From Candidatus Lokiarchaeum ossiferum (GTDB lineage Archaea; Asgardarchaeota; Lokiarchaeia; Sigyniarchaeales; Promethearchaeaceae): a DNA stretch of 32,000 bases. The stretch covers positions 3,330,001 through 3,362,000 of the forward strand of contig CP104013.1 of NCBI GenBank assembly GCA_025839675.1, given 5' to 3'. Positions 10,964 through 27,168 of the stretch are shown in pieces (position 1 is the first letter of the stretch; the number at the start of each line of letters is the position of its first letter). Below the pieces are notes generated by a model. It was not told where the DNA came from and did no database searches. It worked only from the letters and a program-made list of their open reading frames with translations. Position numbers and translations under genes: made by a program.

Positions 10964-13321
10964 ATGGCATTAACAACAAGCGATGAACTTCAGAAACAAT
11001 TGGCAGTTATATTCGGTTTTAAAGGACAACTTGAGTTGGAAGTTGGAGAAATCGTAGGGATTGGAAGTTTATCAAAAAAAACAACAGAGTATTTGATTAA
11101 AAATGTTTTAAACTATCTAAATGCCTATAATTCAATGTTACGAGATTACGCTAATTGTCAATTGCATTCAATCGAATTTTCGCTTGACAATCTTGGTGAT
11201 CCCAATGATATTCAACTAATGCCAAAATCAATGCTTTTTATTCCTGGAGAATACAAAGATTGTAACACTCTATTACTATTATTGGCACCTGAAGCGAGTT
11301 TATTGAACCCTAAAACAGCGAAAAGTGCAGTGGATAATTTAGGAAAATTATATTTTGAAGTTGAAGAAGCTTTAAGTAGGAATGAAATCACCAAAGAACA
11401 AAAACAAGAGGTTTTAACTAAATTTGCGAGGCGATTCGCTTTAAAGCTTCAAGGTAATGTAATTGAAGGAAAATGGAATCGAAAACTTGTAGGACTTAAA
11501 ACTAATTCAGATGATGTTTCATATCTTTCAGTAAATATACAAAAGGAATACCTTTGGGAAAATAAAGAGATAATTCCTAAAAATCATCGTTTTAGAATAA
11601 TACGTACACCTTTAGATGAAAATGATCAATTTGACTTCTTAAAATACAAACTAAGTCAAAGTACCGTTTTTGTAATAACGAAAAACACCTTTCATCTTAC
11701 TTCTAATTTGTTGCACATTGCAAATACAGGAACCATCAATGATCTACATCGAGCTTTATTAATTCTTCTCCTGAAAAATTTTATAGTCTTCTTTCCAGGC
11801 CAAGAAGATTACATTTCCTTTGACCAATTTAAAGATAGCTTGCTGAATTTTATAGCTTTTATCGATTCAATTAAAAAAGATTTCTTTATCCTCTCAGATA
11901 ATGTTGTTAAAAGCGGAATTCAAATGGAATTCAAAAATTTGCCTCAAACTATAATTAGTGAATTTCAAATTGAACAAGATGGTTCCTTGAGAAATCAATT
12001 TTACACCGATTTACAGGATTGTTTTATCAATTATATTATAGAAAATAGACAAGATTATCAAAACTCAAAAAATTTCCGAGCTTTTGAACTAAAAACACCT
12101 TTTCTTTTTATGCAAGAAAGCTTAGATCTAGTTTTAAACAAAATCAAAATTGCTTTACCTGGCTATTTTACCCATGAATTATTAACAAATCATGCTCAAA
12201 CATTCATAGAATTATTACAAAAGGAGTTCGATTCAATAGGAAAGAAGCCTATTATCGCTTTAGGCCTGAAGTATCTTGAAAAGTATTCAAAATATATTCA
12301 GAATCAAATTGATAACAAATATTTAGAGTCAATTGTCCGAAATGAAAGTCAAGTTCAAAGTTTTTTTAATAAAATAGCTAAAGAATCAATTGAACCATTT
12401 ATATCCGGTGTTTCTATTGAAACTGAAGACTTACTTAGTCTTTGTGGTTTTATTCTAGCAGATATTCCTGTAGCAATTCATCACATTGAAATATTGATGA
12501 AATACCGAGTTGAGATTGAGTTTCTATGGGGATTAGTACTTCGTGCTTCCACCTTGCAGAGATTTATTAAAGAATATCCAACGGAGCTTACGTTTGATCC
12601 CCAAACTTTTTGCACTCAATTTATCGAATTCTTACAAAGAAAACGTCTTGGAGGCTTTCAGCTAGTTTGGAAAAACGAAATTTTTGCTTATATTCAAGAA
12701 TTTGCAAATCAATATCAATCGAAGTATTTGCTTGAAAGAGAACAGAAAATTTATTGGTCTAAACAGAAAATTGTCTCCCTGTTTATAGACTATCTTGGAA
12801 AAAAAGTGGATGAAAGCACTACATTAGAAGGGTTTTTAGTTCCTTTGAAGAAATATTTGGACAATATTGCAATGAAAAACGTCAACAATCGTATCGTATT
12901 AAAAATTGTTGATCTGTATTCTGAAGGATTGGAAGTATTTTCTCAATTTCCAGATTATATGCGTCAAGTCTTTTATAAAACTCTTGAAAACTATGAAGAC
13001 ATTAAAATCCACCTCCAAGCATCTACTTTTATAGGTCCATTAAAATCGATTGATGATGCTTTTACAGAAGATATTGAGTTCAGTTCATCATTATCTTATA
13101 AAAAATCGTTTTTCAACTATATAATTGAACATGAAATGAAATATTTTAGTAAATTATTTGCAGAACCAAAGAATATAATATTAAAATCACTTGAGAATGA
13201 AACATTTGATGGAAAAGTACTTTATCATCACATAAACTTCCAGTCTCTTGGAGATAATTTTTCGAAGCTAATGATAAGTTCAAATTATCAATCAGTAAAG
13301 CCACGATTCAAACGGATGTGA
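10964..13321 (+). CDS. Large hypothetical protein (785 aa), soluble, apparently all-alpha; no recognisable domain
   Basis: This is a long uninterrupted ORF with genome-typical composition. I found no TM segments and no Walker A, DEAD or nuclease motifs. Its stop is 4 nt from the next start. Confidence 0.8.
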   Translation: MALTTSDELQKQLAVIFGFKGQLELEVGEIVGIGSLSKKTTEYLIKNVLNYLNAYNSMLRDYANCQLHSIEFSLDNLGDPNDIQLMPKSMLFIPGEYKDCNTLLLLLAPEASLLNPKTAKSAVDNLGKLYFEVEEALSRNEITKEQKQEVLTKFARRFALKLQGNVIEGKWNRKLVGLKTNSDDVSYLSVNIQKEYLWENKEIIPKNHRFRIIRTPLDENDQFDFLKYKLSQSTVFVITKNTFHLTSNLLHIANTGTINDLHRALLILLLKNFIVFFPGQEDYISFDQFKDSLLNFIAFIDSIKKDFFILSDNVVKSGIQMEFKNLPQTIISEFQIEQDGSLRNQFYTDLQDCFINYIIENRQDYQNSKNFRAFELKTPFLFMQESLDLVLNKIKIALPGYFTHELLTNHAQTFIELLQKEFDSIGKKPIIALGLKYLEKYSKYIQNQIDNKYLESIVRNESQVQSFFNKIAKESIEPFISGVSIETEDLLSLCGFILADIPVAIHHIEILMKYRVEIEFLWGLVLRASTLQRFIKEYPTELTFDPQTFCTQFIEFLQRKRLGGFQLVWKNEIFAYIQEFANQYQSKYLLEREQKIYWSKQKIVSLFIDYLGKKVDESTTLEGFLVPLKKYLDNIAMKNVNNRIVLKIVDLYSEGLEVFSQFPDYMRQVFYKTLENYEDIKIHLQASTFIGPLKSIDDAFTEDIEFSSSLSYKKSFFNYIIEHEMKYFSKLFAEPKNIILKSLENETFDGKVLYHHINFQSLGDNFSKLMISSNYQSVKPRFKRM

Positions 13322-13325
13322 AACT

Positions 13326-15773
13326 ATGAGTGAAATATCAGCAATAAAACGAAGTAGAGTCGCACAAGAAGGTGCGCGACGCTTTTTCCAGACTACAGAA
13401 TTAATTGCAAGTCATTTAAAACGGAGTTCGGATAAAAATCTCGTTTTTGCCCTTTCCTCAAAGAAAAATAATCTTTCGAATTTATTAGCAGCATCTTGCG
13501 CAATTCATTGTTTTAACTATTTAGGGATTCGGACAAAAACGGATGAGCAAATGGTCTCTCAAGTTACCAGTATGGAAGCTTTTGAAACGGTTGAAAAACG
13601 AGAAATCTATAAAGAATTTCTAGATCTAATTGGTTCCTCAATACAACATGAAATTTCATTATCTTTATTAGAGTTAAATTACGAAGAACAAATTCTCACT
13701 GCAATGATTGAAAAAAAAAATGTATATGAAGAAAGGTTTATTCAAAATCTGACCGATCAGCTCGAAGAACATTTAATCAAGTCTTTAAACCAATATCCAA
13801 CCGTATTTTGGATTGATCATGTTGGAGAATTAACTGGTTTCATCCCCTTTGTAAAATCACAAATACTGGAAGAAACTGCCGGATTAAAAGCAACTGCCAT
13901 TGATCTTGAAAAAAATTTAAAAGGGGAAGAGAAAGGCGATCGTTATATAGAACTTTCAACAATTTTCCATTTAATAAACAAAATGCAGAAGAGTTTTGAA
14001 TTTTCATCTACACGAGATTTAAAGTTAGAAACTTTTCCAATTAAAAAAATCTTAAACCAAATTATTGCTTATCGTCTAAATTTTTATCCTATCTCAAAAG
14101 TCGGGCTGTTCTGTTTCCAAGATGCCACCAAATTAAAAAAAATAATTTACAAGAAATTGTTGGATGCTGATACCACTCCTATTGATTATGAAAGCTTAGA
14201 GTTAGATCTAACTGTTCTTATTAGAGAAAATATTATTGAACAAGCCCAAAAAGGACCAAATAAGTTTGTCTATTTTCTCCAAAATCTCCTAGAATTGACT
14301 TTTGAGGAGACTTTCTCAGTACTCTCCAGATTTGGAGTGTCCAATGTCTCATTATTTTGTCATATTCTTTCTTTTGATTATAATCAATTTAAAAATGATA
14401 TTTCATTAAATCAATTATCCAAAATGGATTTCCTTACTGCTGATTCGCAGAAATCACTGATTTGGAATGTAGAACAAAAGTTAAATGAATTAAAATTAAT
14501 TTCCTTATCTCGTTCAGAACGTTCAGTTGAAGAAATCTTGAATAATTTTGAGGAGTCTGAAATCCTTGTTTTAAAAAATATTTGTAGGACTTTAAAGATT
14601 GAATTTGATGATTTGAGGCAAGTTTTTCAAAAGAAGATGATCATTGAAAAAATTATTCGAAAAAAATATCCTCTAAAGGGACCAACGTCCTGCTATTCTA
14701 TGGTATTCGATATTCCTGAGATTCTCGCTAATCTTTGTAAAACCATTTATTTCACATTTTTCCGCAAAATCAGCTGCCAATTCGCGAGGGTTCTTGAGAC
14801 TTATGTGAAGATTAAAGAGGATAAAGGATTGTATCTATTGGGATTAAAACGAATCTTTGAATCTACAGCGAACGAAGAATGGGTTGTCATCAAAATTGAA
14901 GAGCTGATTATTCAAAGATTAATGCGACGCCAAGAAGAATTAGCAATGATTTTTAATGCAGAAAATGATGCCTTTTTGGTTAACTCCTTTATATATGCCC
15001 GTTTATTTGACTGTAATTTATCGGATGCGAATGAAATTCTGCACAACGAACCTAGTTTCTTCTATGGAGATTCAATTGGCTTGGGATTACCTAAGGATAT
15101 GATCTCTCCTGTTTCATATATTTTTGCGTATGACTTGCTTTATCGCTTTAAGGATAATCAGGAATTTCTTAAAATTCAAAAAGAACAACTTAAAGAAATG
15201 AGAAACCAAAAATCCACGGAAAAAAGGGATGAAATTAAGAAAGTTCAAAAATTAAATACTTTAAATTGGATTGATAAAAAAATTACCAGCAGTCTCATGT
15301 CTGTTTCAGCTGTTTCAGTCAACCCCACCACATTATATTGGAATGAGAAAGACACACAAATTGTAATCGATAATTTGATGATTCATAGTAAATTAAAAGA
15401 TCGAAAAATTTGTTCTGAATGTAATTGTGATGTGTCAAGTTCTAGTTGTGAACACCCTAATTCTCATAGGAAAGCTAATGCTATCGATTTAATGGCACAA
15501 TATTATCATTTTGCCTTGACTCGGATCAAACAGAATTGGGAAAAAACAAAAGTTCCCACGATTCAAGAATTAACTGATAATATTCATATCTGGTTAAATG
15601 AGATAATGTTTCCACGACTTAACCGAAATATCACTGAAAATGATATTGATCAAATGATTGAAGGTGAACGTCGGGGACTATCCCAAAAAATCGCAATAGC
15701 CATTGGTCAAAAATTAGATAAAGCCATTTATAAAAAGTTCAAAGCAAATTTAAAAAAAAAACGAGGAACCTAA
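13326..15773 (+). CDS. Large hypothetical protein (815 aa), soluble, mostly helical, with a C-terminal Cys/His cluster
   Basis: The start has SD-like GGATGTGA 5 nt upstream, inside the end of the preceding gene, which suggests translational coupling. A CSECNCDVSSSSCEHPNSH cluster lies at nt 15411-15467. No NTPase or nuclease motifs were found. Confidence 0.8.
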   Translation: MSEISAIKRSRVAQEGARRFFQTTELIASHLKRSSDKNLVFALSSKKNNLSNLLAASCAIHCFNYLGIRTKTDEQMVSQVTSMEAFETVEKREIYKEFLDLIGSSIQHEISLSLLELNYEEQILTAMIEKKNVYEERFIQNLTDQLEEHLIKSLNQYPTVFWIDHVGELTGFIPFVKSQILEETAGLKATAIDLEKNLKGEEKGDRYIELSTIFHLINKMQKSFEFSSTRDLKLETFPIKKILNQIIAYRLNFYPISKVGLFCFQDATKLKKIIYKKLLDADTTPIDYESLELDLTVLIRENIIEQAQKGPNKFVYFLQNLLELTFEETFSVLSRFGVSNVSLFCHILSFDYNQFKNDISLNQLSKMDFLTADSQKSLIWNVEQKLNELKLISLSRSERSVEEILNNFEESEILVLKNICRTLKIEFDDLRQVFQKKMIIEKIIRKKYPLKGPTSCYSMVFDIPEILANLCKTIYFTFFRKISCQFARVLETYVKIKEDKGLYLLGLKRIFESTANEEWVVIKIEELIIQRLMRRQEELAMIFNAENDAFLVNSFIYARLFDCNLSDANEILHNEPSFFYGDSIGLGLPKDMISPVSYIFAYDLLYRFKDNQEFLKIQKEQLKEMRNQKSTEKRDEIKKVQKLNTLNWIDKKITSSLMSVSAVSVNPTTLYWNEKDTQIVIDNLMIHSKLKDRKICSECNCDVSSSSCEHPNSHRKANAIDLMAQYYHFALTRIKQNWEKTKVPTIQELTDNIHIWLNEIMFPRLNRNITENDIDQMIEGERRGLSQKIAIAIGQKLDKAIYKKFKANLKKKRGT

Positions 15774-18032: not shown

Positions 18033-18299
18033 TTATTCAGCTGCAATAATGTCTGCGGCGGTTAAGCGTTTACGCTTGTCTGCTTTGACCATTTTTACTG
18101 CTTCTTTAGTTACTTCAGTAGCAACTTTGGTTAATTGTTCAATTAACAATTCAACTGCATTTTCTGCAACTAATGAAGCACCTTCGTTCTTCATTAAACG
18201 TCTTATTGGAGCTTTGGCAATGTAAGCACTTCGGGTAGCTGGTTTAGCTGCCTTTTTAGGTGCTGCTTTCTTTTTTGCTGGTGTTTTTTTTTTAGCCAT
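18033..18299 (-). CDS. Archaeal histone-fold protein with a ~22-aa Lys/Ala/Pro-rich N-terminal tail
   Basis: The histone fold IAKAPIRRLMKNEGASLVAENAVELLIEQLTKVATEVTKEAVKMVKADKRKRLTAADIIAA aligns by eye to HMfB-type histones (PIAPIGRIIK...RKTIKAEDIELA). The tail is MAKKKTPAKKKAAPKKAAKPATR. The start is ATG 18299, preceded by AAGTGATTATT; the ORF-track 'MIIM' start is a GTG inside the SD. Confidence 0.9.
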   Translation of the reverse strand: MAKKKTPAKKKAAPKKAAKPATRSAYIAKAPIRRLMKNEGASLVAENAVELLIEQLTKVATEVTKEAVKMVKADKRKRLTAADIIAAE

Positions 18300-18359
18300 A
18301 ATAATCACTTAAATTTTTTATATCCTCCGCTAGGATATAAATTAAATATCACTCACCCC

Positions 18360-24419: not shown

Positions 24420-27023
24420 CTATGTGATATCTTCAACTTTAGCCCCTACTGAATGTAGACGTTTTTCTAAGGTGATTTTATCATTTTTTCGTTTAGGATA
24501 TGACTCTAAAAATTTTTCTGGAGATTTTTTAATAATCGCCAAACATCTTAATAGAAGGTCATAGGCTTTGAATGGTCGTCGGGCTTCACTTGTGTTCGCC
24601 TCACGAAGGAATTCTAAGTAATTTTTTACGTCTAGCTCTTCTTCCTTAAATGTAGAAATATCAATATCATCAAATTCTTTGGGCCTACTTTTATATTGCG
24701 TTTTGACTTCTTGCTTCCATTCTTCCTCTTTGATTTCAAGTTTTTGCAGCTTTTCGACGAATTTAATATGCTGATCTTCTAGCTCTAGTTGTTTTAGCAA
24801 GATAACTAATTTTTTACACTCAGCAATAGCAAAAGGCCATTCTCCCGCTTTTTCATGGGCTCGCAGCTTTTTCTTTATTTCTTTAAGTTGCTTCTCGCGT
24901 TCTTCCAGCGCTTTCTGTTCGGCTTCTTCCCGCGCTTTTTGTTCCGCTTCTTCTCGCACTTTCTGTTCGGCTTCTTCCCGCGCTTTTTGTTCCGCTTCTT
25001 CTCGCACTTTCTGTTCGGCTTCTTCTCGCGCTTTTTGTTCGGCTTCTTCCCGCGCTTTTTGTTCCGCTTCTTCTCGCACTTTCTGTTCGGCTTCTTCTCG
25101 CACTTTCTGTTCGGCTTCTTCTCGCGCTTTTTGTTCGGCTTCTTCTCGCGCTTTTTGTTCGGCTTCTTCCCGCGCTTTTTGTTCGGCTTCTTCTCGCACT
25201 TTCTGTTCGGCTTCTTCTCGCGCTTTTTGTTCGGCTTCTTCTCGCACTTTCTGTTCGGCTTCTTCTCGCGCTTTTTGTTCGGCTTCTTCTCGCGCTTTCT
25301 GTTCCGCTTCTTCCCGCACTTTCTGTTCGGCTTCTTCTCGCGCTTTTTGTTCGGCTTCTTCTCGCGCTTTCTGTTCCGCTTCTTCCCGCGCTTTTTGTTC
25401 CGCTTCTTCCCGCGCTTTCTGTTCGGCTTCTTCCCGCGCTTTTTGTTCGGCTTCTTCTCGCGCTTTCTGTTCGGCTTCTTCCCGCGCTTTCTGTTCGGCT
25501 TCTTCTCGCGCTTTTTGTTCGGCTTCTTCTCGCGCTTTCTGTTCCGCTTCTTCCCGCGCTTTTTGTTCCGCTTCTTCCCGCGCTTTCTGTTCGGCTTCTT
25601 CTCGCGCTTTCTGTTCGGCTTCTTCCCGCGCTTTTTGTTCGGCTTCTTCTCGCGCTTTCTGTTCGGCTTCTTCCCGCGCTTTCTGTTCGGCTTCTTCTCG
25701 CGCTTTTTGTTCGGCTTCTTCTCGCGCTTTTTGTTCGGCTTCTTCCCGCGCTTTTTGTTCCGCTTCTTCCCGCGCTTTCTGTTCGGCTTCTTCTCGCGCT
25801 TTCTGTTCGGCTTCTTCCCGCGCTTTTTGTTCGGCTTCTTCTCGCGCTTTCTGTTCGGCTTCTTCTCGCGCTTTTTGTTCGGCTTCTTCTCGCGCTTTCT
25901 GTTCCGCTTCTTCCCGCGCTTTTTGTTCCGCTTCTTCCCGCGCTTTCTGTTCGGCTTCTTCCCGCGCTTTTTGTTCGGCTTCTTCTCGCGCTTTCTGTTC
26001 GGCTTCTTCCCGCGCTTTCTGTTCGGCTTCTTCCCGCGCTTTTTTCTCGCTCTCAATTATATTTTCTTTCTTCTTACTTATATTATCTTCAAATTGACTT
26101 ATTTTTTGATTCCAAGTCTTTATTTCTTCAAATTTTTCTAATTTTTTAACAATTTTAAGAATCTCTTTCGCACTAGTTATTCCTGATCCCCAGTCCTCAT
26201 CAAGTTCGTTTTTCTTAATTAATTCTACTAATTGTTCATAATCTGCATTTAATTTATTTTCTGCGACCTGTTTTTGCCGTTTTGCCTCTTGGGCGTTAAA
26301 AATTTCTTCTTGTTGTTTCAATTTGACTTGTGAATTTTTCCAAAACCGGATTAAGCTGGAGTCATCCGATTCTTCTAGTATTCTTAAAATCTCTTCTAAC
26401 ACATGCTTTGCTTCTAAAAACGCATTTTCTTGATAAAATTTTTCATAGGATGTTTGGATTTGTGAACATTTTTCTGAGATGTTCTTTTCTTTCTCCGAAA
26501 TATTTGTTCTGTTTATATTTTTGACAATTTCCTCATATTCTTCAATTAAAGCTACATTTTTAATCTTATCTGCATATTCAATTATTTTTCGAGTTTCTAT
26601 CAATGCTTCATCAAATTGCTTTTTAGCTAAATACTGAGATACTTCAATTTTATGTTTCTCAATGTTTTCTAATATTTCTGCTTCAAATTGATCCCATTCA
26701 TCGATATGGGATTGGAATTCATCTTGTGAAATTTTTAGAATTTGTAAGAAATCCATTGTCTCAAGACGTAGACCTTCAACGGTAAAATGACGCAGAATTG
26801 TAATATCTGGATTTCGTTCTAAAATTTGCCCCTCGATCATTGGAACTTTATTTTGAAGATCACGCGAAACTCGTTCACCAATCCAAATGTAAAGCCGTTT
26901 TTGATGGTAAAAGTAAACTGCTATGATATTTATATTAATAAAAGAATTTTTCAATTTTTCTGCAGGAATAGACACGATAGTTCCATCTGTATGCAGTTTA
27001 TAAGCAATATAAGGGGGGTTCAT
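24420..27023 (-). CDS. Gelsolin-like-domain protein with helical repeat modules and a 47-copy AREEAEQK tandem octapeptide array
   Basis: This is an 867-aa ORF. The N-terminal ~100 aa read ...NIIAVYFYHQKRLYIWIGERVSRDLQNKVPMIEGQILERNPDITILRHFTVEGLRLETMDFLQIL, which resembles the gelsolin-repeat pattern (hydrophobic strand, hYhWhG, helix, xVxEGxExxxF). The array occupies nt 24912-26039. TTTAAATAAAATG lies about 25-35 nt upstream of the ATG. Confidence 0.85.
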   Translation of the reverse strand: MNPPYIAYKLHTDGTIVSIPAEKLKNSFININIIAVYFYHQKRLYIWIGERVSRDLQNKVPMIEGQILERNPDITILRHFTVEGLRLETMDFLQILKISQDEFQSHIDEWDQFEAEILENIEKHKIEVSQYLAKKQFDEALIETRKIIEYADKIKNVALIEEYEEIVKNINRTNISEKEKNISEKCSQIQTSYEKFYQENAFLEAKHVLEEILRILEESDDSSLIRFWKNSQVKLKQQEEIFNAQEAKRQKQVAENKLNADYEQLVELIKKNELDEDWGSGITSAKEILKIVKKLEKFEEIKTWNQKISQFEDNISKKKENIIESEKKAREEAEQKAREEAEQKAREEAEQKAREEAEQKAREEAEQKAREEAEQKAREEAEQKAREEAEQKAREEAEQKAREEAEQKAREEAEQKAREEAEQKAREEAEQKAREEAEQKAREEAEQKAREEAEQKAREEAEQKAREEAEQKAREEAEQKAREEAEQKAREEAEQKAREEAEQKAREEAEQKAREEAEQKAREEAEQKAREEAEQKAREEAEQKAREEAEQKAREEAEQKAREEAEQKVREEAEQKAREEAEQKAREEAEQKVREEAEQKAREEAEQKVREEAEQKAREEAEQKAREEAEQKAREEAEQKVREEAEQKVREEAEQKAREEAEQKAREEAEQKVREEAEQKAREEAEQKVREEAEQKAREEAEQKALEEREKQLKEIKKKLRAHEKAGEWPFAIAECKKLVILLKQLELEDQHIKFVEKLQKLEIKEEEWKQEVKTQYKSRPKEFDDIDISTFKEEELDVKNYLEFLREANTSEARRPFKAYDLLLRCLAIIKKSPEKFLESYPKRKNDKITLEKRLHSVGAKVEDIT
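24888..26039 (-). repeat. 24-bp coding tandem repeat: 47 intact units (24912-26039) plus one degenerate unit (24888-24911)
   Basis: The unit is GCG CGR GAA GAA GCS GAA CAR AAA (minus strand). 1128 nt / 24 = 47 exact in-frame units. The flanking degenerate unit encodes ALEEREKQ. Confidence 0.95.
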
Positions 27024-27168
27024 TCGTTACTAAATAATTATCCACATTTTATTTAAAACGGATCACAAGTTTTCTTAGGTTTTTGGAGATTTGAATTAAT
27101 AAACTAAAATTAAAATTGAAAAAATACTCTCTCCTGTTTTTAATCCATAAATTAGGTGTACACAGAAG

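Follow-up and report, generated by a model that had tools for sequence, protein, structure and literature searches.

The 32,000-nucleotide stretch of the Candidatus Lokiarchaeum ossiferum chromosome analysed here, hereafter the window (contig CP104013.1, positions 3,330,001 to 3,362,000), carries on its minus strand a gene for an 867-residue protein in which a predicted gelsolin-homology (GH) domain is joined to helical modules, a very long array of charged octapeptides and a conserved C-terminal domain. By exact sequence match, the protein is UYP46565.1 (NEF87_002850), encoded on the 6,035,313-bp chromosome of Ca. Lokiarchaeum ossiferum B-35 and named "hypothetical protein"; an automatic name given in one source, "ubiquitinyl hydrolase 1", is spurious, and no search supports it. 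An earlier note, made from the letters of the DNA, had described the product as a gelsolin-like domain fused to a perfect array forming a rigid single alpha-helix (SAH) and linked to actin. That observation is confirmed, none of the outcomes that the note had named as refuting it was observed, and its interpretation is supported with corrections, in that the array is not perfect, the rod is not rigid and the class of architecture is already known. In our assessment the protein is a previously unrecognised, probably GelX-type GH protein with a giant, polymorphic octad array of the ER/K type, rich in Glu, Arg and Lys. The features of the gene, in window coordinates, are the following.

24420..27023, minus strand: complete coding sequence of 867 amino acids (from the listing of open reading frames; 102.96 kDa, isoelectric point 5.0)
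26724..27023, minus strand: predicted GH domain, residues 1-100 (AlphaFold, Foldseek and a family profile against the PDB)
26040..26723, minus strand: helical hairpin modules, residues 101-328, a domain-X-like region (AlphaFold helices, hhalign)
24912..26039, minus strand: ER/K octad array, residues 329-704, 47 units (Tandem Repeats Finder and translation)
24654..24911, minus strand: post-array helical module and linker, residues 705-790, with one further hairpin module (HEKAGEWPFAIAECKKLVILLKQLE...)
24423..24653, minus strand: conserved C-terminal helical domain, residues 791-867 (present in all orthologs)
27047..27058, minus strand: A/T-rich TATA-like box (TTTTAAATAAAA), 24-35 nt 5' of the ATG, a possible archaeal promoter element as read from the sequence

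The N-terminal domain belongs to a family that becomes visible with profile searches. An initial homology search with the window protein returned two relatives only, and an exhaustive search with a three-sequence profile retrieved 84 cluster representatives of 51 to 1663 residues, in all but one of which the GH domain is N-terminal. Helical tails are present in the members of this set that were inspected, and the named sources of the family are entries called "hypothetical protein" from Promethearchaeota or Lokiarchaeia metagenome-assembled genomes (MAGs). When 71 of the family N-domains were used as a profile against all PDB sequences, matches were obtained to Thorarchaeota ProGel (7C2F_B, E 4.6e-7, the alignment spanning the whole domain), villin (E 1.3e-6), adseverin (E 1.2e-4), Loki 2DGel (E 2.0e-3) and Heimdall 2DGel (E 0.24). 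An OB-fold reading had arisen from the three-sequence profile, which gave only weak matches in the PDB, to Tetrahymena p19/Ten1 (E 0.0025); it was dropped because these matches vanished with the 71-sequence profile.

Structure prediction points in the same direction as the profile. An AlphaFold model of residues 1-122, built on the family alignment, has a mean predicted local distance difference test score (pLDDT) of 92.6 and a predicted TM-score of 0.84, and its succession of elements (strands 33-38 and 43-48, helix 60-70, strand 78-83, helix 87-95) reproduces the strand and helix order that had been guessed from the letters. It conforms to the gelsolin/cofilin fold, in which a mixed beta-sheet at the centre lies between a long and a short helix. 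In a Foldseek search of the PDB with this model the top 50 matches are all gelsolin domains, the best being 7C2F_B (E 4.6e-5, target-normalised TM-score 0.70). A second, full-length AlphaFold model, made from a different and shallower alignment, leads to the same outcome (TM-score 0.77, root-mean-square deviation 2.8) and contains a single GH domain, at the N-terminus, with no second one elsewhere in the chain. The GH assignment of residues 1-100, which the earlier note had proposed for the first ~100 residues, is thus well supported by sequence profile and predicted structure. Identity to ProGel is ~14-15%; the domain has diverged beyond the reach of the curated Pfam model, and annotation therefore missed it. 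Single-domain Asgard gelsolins are reported to be without type I and type II calcium sites (PMC7444086). As a side observation, Pfam DUF7904 matches 13 of the 71 family N-domains weakly (best E 7e-6) and could already represent a portion of the Asgard GH domain.

Behind the GH domain, residues 100-328 are modelled as confident helices in the full-length prediction (pLDDT 83-94), arranged over residues 101-328 as repeated hairpin-like modules of ~45 residues each, and one more such module lies 3' of the array at residues ~725-770. The protein closes with a domain of ~75 residues (pLDDT 77-90) that follows the pattern Y..LLR.AN..E...LL.CL.II...E.F...PKR..D..LEKR; it gave no match in Pfam or the PDB and was not found outside this orthogroup. 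The part of the protein that follows the array had been put at ~145 residues and actually comprises 163.

One GH domain followed by a helical domain is a published Asgard class, and the architecture is new only in its giant ER/K array. Akil et al. (2020) defined three Asgard gelsolin architectures (PMC7444086), among them 1DGelX, in which one gelsolin domain is followed by a helical domain X predicted to be a coiled coil (PMC7444086); Thor 1DGelX binds rabbit actin with a dissociation constant of 7.7 uM and has calcium-independent nucleating and severing activity (PMC7444086). Two 1DGelX genes have been reported in MK-D1 and three in GC14_75 (PMC9433394), and eight gelsolin-like proteins have been counted in L. 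ossiferum (PMC9834061). Five GH proteins are enriched in a Lokiactin co-immunoprecipitation (co-IP), including B35_GelX (UYP44381.1), a 40-kDa protein distinct from the window protein (bioRxiv 10.1101/2025.11.30.690169). The window protein is not named in PMC7444086, PMC9433394, PMC9834061 or bioRxiv 10.1101/2025.11.30.690169. A large Asgard GH family of 347-353 residues has the same N-terminal domain as the window protein, and the helical regions of the two align in hhalign with a probability of 94% and E 1e-7, values that helical or biased composition can inflate. This family is tentatively equated with the published 1DGelX, by size and architecture only.

The array itself is recorded by Tandem Repeats Finder as a 24-nt period in 47.6 copies at 24900..26042, and its translation consists of 47 strictly contiguous octads, 40 of them AREEAEQK and 7 VREEAEQK, the latter clustered toward the C-terminal third. 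The 47 uninterrupted units reported earlier therefore stand, but their perfection does not. An in-frame tandem repeat of 47 units is far beyond chance. Its DNA falls into 10 unit variants whose differences are confined to 4 positions, 3 synonymous and 1 giving the A/V exchange; this pattern, together with the intact frame, fits a constraint on the encoded peptide, a reading for which the units of a young repeat do not count as independent samples. In composition the array stands apart from the rest of the gene (53% against 32% G+C). All its Ala codons are GCG or GCC and all its Arg codons CGA or CGG, which are minority codons in the other genes of the window, while Glu is always GAA and Lys always AAA. 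On G+C and codon usage, the array therefore looks like the amplification of a single founder unit.

When the octad is written as A1 R2 E3 E4 A5 E6 Q7 K8, its i/i+4 relations form four stripes, of which R2-E6-R2' and E4-K8-E4' are salt-bridge ladders and the others are E3-Q7 and A1-A5. The two ladders predicted earlier are thereby borne out, with 0.49 opposite-charge pairs per residue at i/i+4 and zero like-charge pairs; at i/i+3 there are 0.12 favourable and 0.12 unfavourable pairs, compared with 0.69 favourable in AEEEKKK. The array is 62% charged, contains 1.9% LIVMFYW and no Pro or Gly, and carries a net charge of -47. It is E/K/R-rich, lacks a hydrophobic seam and contains no helix breakers, which is the composition expected of SAHs. 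The apolar periodicity is 4.0 residues rather than 3.5, so that the Ala stripe of a helical array would turn 40 degrees per four residues and complete one circuit per 5.4 nm. The best heptad a/d occupancy, Ala included, is 26%, as against 100% in the AEEAKKA design and 80% in GCN4, and LIVMFYW occupy 3% of the a/d positions, which falls short of a heptad coiled coil. The period of 8 in place of a heptad, pointed out by the earlier note, is upheld, and because of the 4.0 period and the 26% occupancy a classical coiled coil is unlikely for such a sequence. Designed AEEEKKK and AEEEKRK repeats are monomeric SAHs (PMC5347031). A single, mostly continuous alpha-helix is the most likely state of the array, and the composition and the missing heptad seam agree with the ER/K signature proposed for it; both helicity and the monomeric state are predictions from these features.

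Geometry follows from the residue count, since 376 residues at 0.15 nm each give a contour length of 56 nm, the value put forward before. The word "rigid" that had accompanied it is too strong, because a persistence length of ~15 nm for SAHs (as cited in PMC5347031) would make the array a semi-flexible tether, with a worm-like-chain root-mean-square end-to-end distance of ~35 nm for 47 units and 32 nm for a 41-unit allele. Reported SAHs typically have 40 to ~200 residues, with a mean of ~75, the longest being those of ~200 in myosins (PMC5347031 among other sources). If it is a helix, the array would be exceptional in length among them.

A second complete L. ossiferum genome and a related MAG, each with an array of its own, show that the repeat is genuine, that it is specific to the Lokiarchaeum lineage and that its copy number changes quickly. 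For B-35, short and long reads together gave a single-contig genome (PMC9834061). The second complete genome (CP163304.1, 6.27 Mb) carries the same gene in the same neighbourhood (protein P0087, 818 residues), with array flanks 98-99% identical to those of B-35 at the nucleotide level. There the array counts 41 units, differently ordered, with no V units and with private variants in the form of four AWEEAEQK units and a modified last unit; relative to B-35 it adds one synonymous and one replacement position, plus the changed last unit. The reading frame of the array is intact in both strains, over 1128 nt in B-35. In the related MAG (L007) synteny is kept and an array with a 24-nt period occupies the same site, its EEAELKAK unit identical to EEAEQKAR at 6 of 8 residues; a 100-N scaffold gap interrupts it, which is what short-read assembly does at such a repeat. 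The variation in array length for which a survey of orthologs had been proposed is present already between strains of one species (47 against 41 units). Scans of metagenomes with peptide patterns and with a two-unit DNA pattern of the array found no environmental copies of the exact array in the collection.

More distant orthologs keep the ends of the protein and vary its middle. In Promethearchaeum, the orthologs of MK-D1 (323 residues, L003:10001-10972), P0001 (437 residues) and P0002 (501 residues) have the same GH domain, hairpin modules and C-terminal domain, and at the site of the array they carry Pro-containing acidic repeats (EAEPLKEEE or EEEPVKEEE) in varying number, which cannot form one continuous helix. 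The closest long relative, P0004 (736 residues, from a Promethearchaeota MAG), has ~7 hairpin modules; like the Promethearchaeum orthologs it lacks an ER/K array, its centre being extended by extra hairpin modules instead, and together these proteins show 39-48% identity to the window protein. Elsewhere in the GH family, P0041 contains an (EEEEAKRLA)n repeat (residues 386-444) that runs into the contig end, and P0035 contains three 19-residue units of ER/K type (RRAAEEEARKKATEDEEAK, residues 705-777), which suggests that charged helical repeats arose repeatedly within the family. A crude SAH-like filter applied to the family returned a long segment only in the window protein (residues 313-717). 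The constant feature across the orthologs is a long, acidic and fast-evolving spacer between the putative actin-binding end and the C-terminal module, and its Pro-free, predicted helical form is a speciality of Lokiarchaeum.

Evidence for expression and for a link to Lokiactin comes from published proteomics. Supplementary Table 3 of the preprint equates GNAMCCOK_02850 with UYP46535.1 and 03331 with UYP47016.1 (bioRxiv 10.1101/2025.11.30.690169), a constant offset in this region from which we infer that UYP46565.1 corresponds to GNAMCCOK_02880; the mass given for the latter is 102.9 kDa, that calculated for the window protein 102.956 kDa. In the whole proteome, GNAMCCOK_02880 has a mean log2 intensity of 15.35, where Lokiactin reaches 21.7 and B35_GelX 18.6. 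The co-IP with Lokiactin yielded 10 peptides and 34 spectra of GNAMCCOK_02880 (13.5% coverage), which was quantified in 3/3 Lokiactin precipitations and 0/3 immunoglobulin G controls, with a log2 ratio of 1.32 (p 0.0033, adjusted p 0.023) that is on par with the Arf GTPase highlighted by the authors (1.34). The only tryptic peptides of the array are AR/VR and EEAEQK, which are probably too short for standard identification, and this may explain the low coverage; 13.5% of the whole corresponds to ~1/4 of the non-array sequence. The actin link suggested by the earlier note thus gains indirect backing from the co-IP, by way of the mapping just described. Actin binding by the GH domain itself is predicted from homology, and the co-IP points weakly the same way.

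We favour, at a probability of roughly 60%, the reading that the window protein is a Lokiactin-associated protein of the single-GH plus helical domain X type in which the ER/K array serves as a tether or spacer. The GH domain would bind Lokiactin as ProGel and gelsolin G1 bind actin, and the hairpin modules may add filament-side contacts, side-binding by domain X having been hypothesised in PMC7444086. Between the third and fourth hairpin modules a 24-nt unit would have been amplified to 47 copies, and the resulting (A/V)REEAEQK array would fold as one long, acidic, semi-flexible single alpha-helix stabilised by salt bridges, keeping the C-terminal module ~30-55 nm from the actin-binding end. 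The C-terminal module may bind a partner or self-associate, and the protein would then tether or space Lokiactin filaments relative to another structure, at a length set by the number of repeats and open to quick change through their gain and loss. A narrower claim, that the array is a ~50-nm single alpha-helix and gives the Lokiactin cytoskeleton a ruler or tether of tunable length, the repeat number setting the distance, is tentative and on balance doubtful. The same holds for the proposal that it fixes a distance between actin filaments and a target of the C-terminal module, be it the membrane, another filament or a partner protein, which we regard as a speculative possibility.

Several observations weigh against the favoured reading. 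At the actin-binding end, single-sequence Pfam gives no gelsolin match for the window protein. PF00626, the family against which the earlier note had wanted the domain checked, does not reach its gathering score, so that the check comes out in favour of a gelsolin domain with the PDB profile and Foldseek but not with Pfam. Scanning the 71 family members singly brought up MPK1_gelsolin_C in 14 and Gelsolin in 5, all below threshold. Within the array, the full-length AlphaFold model that had been called for renders most of the repeat as helix (residues 299-349, 376-589 and 655-726, the longest of 214 residues) but at a pLDDT of only 60-73, and residues 350-375 and 590-654 are modelled as non-helical with low confidence although they have the same octad sequence; these two unexplained breaks are not sequence-encoded, and AlphaFold leaves the state of the array undecided. 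The charged fraction of 0.62 is closer to that of the dimerising EK2 design (0.57) than to that of validated de novo SAHs (0.86). Furthermore, the Pro repeats of the Promethearchaeum orthologs indicate that a helix as such may not be required, and the array tolerates private variants that are not conservative (R->W, A->V).

The link to Lokiactin has its own difficulties. The identity of GNAMCCOK_02880 with UYP46565.1 derives from mass and index arithmetic and is not stated in the preprint; its enrichment is modest, with a rank that we roughly estimate to lie below the first 50 entries when the table is ordered by ratio; and the window protein is absent from the five GH proteins of the authors. 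In the same co-IP, GNAMCCOK_02875 (9.51 kDa) is strongly enriched (log2 3.96, adjusted p 0.012), which reflects either a genuine association or carry-over driven by charge. This protein is basic, and charged proteins, including one with a -47 array, may therefore have been carried along non-specifically. By index arithmetic, GNAMCCOK_02875 corresponds to the gene at 18033..18308 (minus strand), which encodes an 88-91-residue histone-fold protein with a Lys/Ala/Pro-rich N-terminal tail (MAKKKTPAKKKAAPKKAAKPATR...).

Among the rival explanations, the one that survives best treats the array as a disordered or transiently helical acidic polyampholyte, an entropic spacer or spring in which length and negative charge matter; we consider it unlikely. 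The acidic spacer shared with the Pro-repeat orthologs (MK-D1, P0001 and P0002, at the same position) keeps it alive, as it does the neutral-expansion alternative taken up next, and the low-confidence non-helical stretches of the AlphaFold array and the net charge of -47 would both be at home in it. Set against this are the octad itself, composed of strong helix formers only (A, E, K, R, Q) with no Pro, Gly, Ser or Asn, and its pairing, in which four of the five charged residues (all but E3) have an opposite-charge i+4 partner. Simpler designed repeats of the same kind are moreover >90% helical (PMC5347031), and AlphaFold models most of the array as helix.

Alternatively, slippage or unequal recombination could have driven a 24-nt unit into runaway but functionally neutral expansion, tolerated in the linker of a GelX-type protein that works as its shorter relatives do, whatever the length of the array. 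Such a process would readily produce arrays of 47 and 41 units between flanks that are 98-99% identical, with reshuffled unit order and private non-conservative variants, and it agrees with relatives that lack the array, such as P0004, and with the 53% against 32% G+C that suggests a single amplified founder unit. It is nonetheless improbable, given a frame that is intact over 1128 nt and in both strains, variable positions that are mostly synonymous, and a related species (L007) that keeps a period-8 unit, 6/8 identical, at the same site. The separate origins of ER/K repeats in P0041 and P0035 and the detection of the protein by proteomics (as GNAMCCOK_02880) count against it as well.

A coiled coil of two or more array helices, which would make the protein a bivalent actin cross-linker, we hold to be highly doubtful. 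Large hydrophobics make up only 1.9% of the array, its apolar period is 4.0 and not 3.5 with a/d occupancy at best 26%, and parallel chains, each carrying a net -1 per octad, would repel one another. The coiled-coil prediction for domain X of Thor 1DGelX (PMC7444086) speaks for it, and so does the Ala-containing charged AEEAKKA design, which dimerised through an Ala seam (PMC5347031), the array having an Ala stripe of its own (A1 and A5, with Val instead in 7 units). Highly charged helices, however, are often mispredicted as coiled coils (PMC5347031; for INCENP, PMC4571873).

An assembly artefact, the concern raised by the earlier note and kept in mind by short-read MAGs that cannot span such arrays and by the 100-N gap of L007, is practically negligible in view of the single B-35 contig from short and long reads (PMC9834061), the array of the independent complete genome CP163304.1 and a proteomics entry of full-length mass, a mass taken from the annotated sequence and not measured.

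The favoured reading, a single-GH, domain-X-type protein with an ER/K tether, can be set beside three known systems. Asgard 1DGelX/GelX proteins (Thor KXH72031.1; B35_GelX UYP44381.1) likewise have an N-terminal GH domain followed by an all-helical region without known homologs, and restriction to Asgard archaea is common to both. The window protein comes from a gene different from that of B35_GelX, with which it shares a place in the Lokiactin co-IP (by the inferred mapping). It differs from the known class in its length (867 against ~350 residues), in the addition of the 376-residue ER/K octad array and of a conserved module of its own at the C-terminus, and, relative to Thor 1DGelX, in the ~14-15% identity of its GH domain to ProGel, for which 35% has been reported in the Thor protein (PMC7444086).

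With the ER/K SAHs of myosin VI/X, caldesmon and INCENP, and with the designed AEEEKKK and AEEEKRK repeats, the array has in common its Glu/Lys/Arg richness, dense i/i+4 opposite-charge pairs and no hydrophobic seam, and it would likewise connect functional modules of a cytoskeletal protein. The array departs from them in its lower charged fraction (62%), its Ala stripe, the net charge of -1 carried by each unit and its archaeal origin, and its helical state is predicted here from sequence and model. Whereas natural SAHs are not strictly periodic and typically span 40 to ~200 residues, the array is an exact tandem octad of 376 residues. Drebrin, an actin-associated scaffold protein with an ADF-H domain, an SAH and an actin-binding region, is the closest eukaryotic analogue in architecture (PMC12203971); its N-terminal domain shares the ADF-H/gelsolin fold class but is of the ADF-H and not the gelsolin type, its SAH is short and non-repetitive, and the likeness is one of architecture only, with no homology implied.

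The surroundings of the gene comprise seryl-tRNA synthetase, Sua5, CysK, CysE, an alpha-amylase-family enzyme and IMP cyclohydrolase, with the local order amylase-gene-CysE-CysK in L. ossiferum; this is a housekeeping neighbourhood without a functional hint for the 867-residue protein. The order in Promethearchaeum differs, being GH57-gene-kinase-STT3, and the conserved block there (L003:7953..16226 in MK-D1; also L001) runs from a small Arf/Ras-like GTPase through GH57 and the gene to a PfkB-type kinase and an STT3 of 1326 residues. The proteins co-precipitated with Lokiactin in L. ossiferum include an Arf GTPase as well. In L007 the ortholog and the amylase gene are separated by a gene for 730 residues (L007:2554..4746), whose product begins with a copy of the post-array module and of the conserved C-terminal domain of the window protein. 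The beta-rich part with which it ends (..NPFEDYIEEAIIEDIIPYNFEI..) is likewise found at the end of P0009 and P0035, both of the GH family. This gene may be a paralog with shuffled modules or the result of an erroneous scaffold join.

Pfam, applied to the whole protein and to its four parts, yields no genuine domain, the matches to Ten1_2, MMS21_N and others being chance matches. One model, Cornifin/SPRR (PF02389), scores 84 bits over a cut-off of 34.8 bits, entirely inside the array. Proteins of this family are small, proline-rich components of the cornified envelope with Pro/Gln/Cys-rich repeats; because the array has no Pro or Cys, the match is a repeat-driven false positive and membership is ruled out. 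Long open reading frames that overlap the array in other frames or on the other strand (24855..26141, plus strand; 24875..26056, minus strand) are by-products of the repeat. Elsewhere in the window, two adjacent open reading frames of 785 and 815 residues (10964..13321 and 13326..15773, both plus strand, 4 nt between them) have no Pfam match; checked as possible paralogs of the gelsolin-type protein, they proved unrelated to the gelsolin family.

L. ossiferum is among the few cultured Asgard archaea, and its Lokiactin skeleton shapes protrusions that feature in models of eukaryogenesis; to our knowledge, the recognised regulators of Lokiactin are gelsolins and profilins only. The protein described here is a GH protein that standard annotation missed and that, by the mapping used here, figures among the published Lokiactin co-IP proteins, where it was not identified as a gelsolin. 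If the array is the single helix proposed, it would be about twice as long as the longest reported SAHs, the longest natural SAH described and, if it works as a spacer, the first of its kind in the actin system of an archaeon, and the ER/K levers and tethers of eukaryotes (myosins, caldesmon, drebrin) would have an Asgard counterpart, convergent or ancestral. The strains of L. ossiferum offer a natural series of array lengths, and if the array is a spacer, a molecular length would be tied to cytoskeletal geometry that is visible by cryo-tomography.

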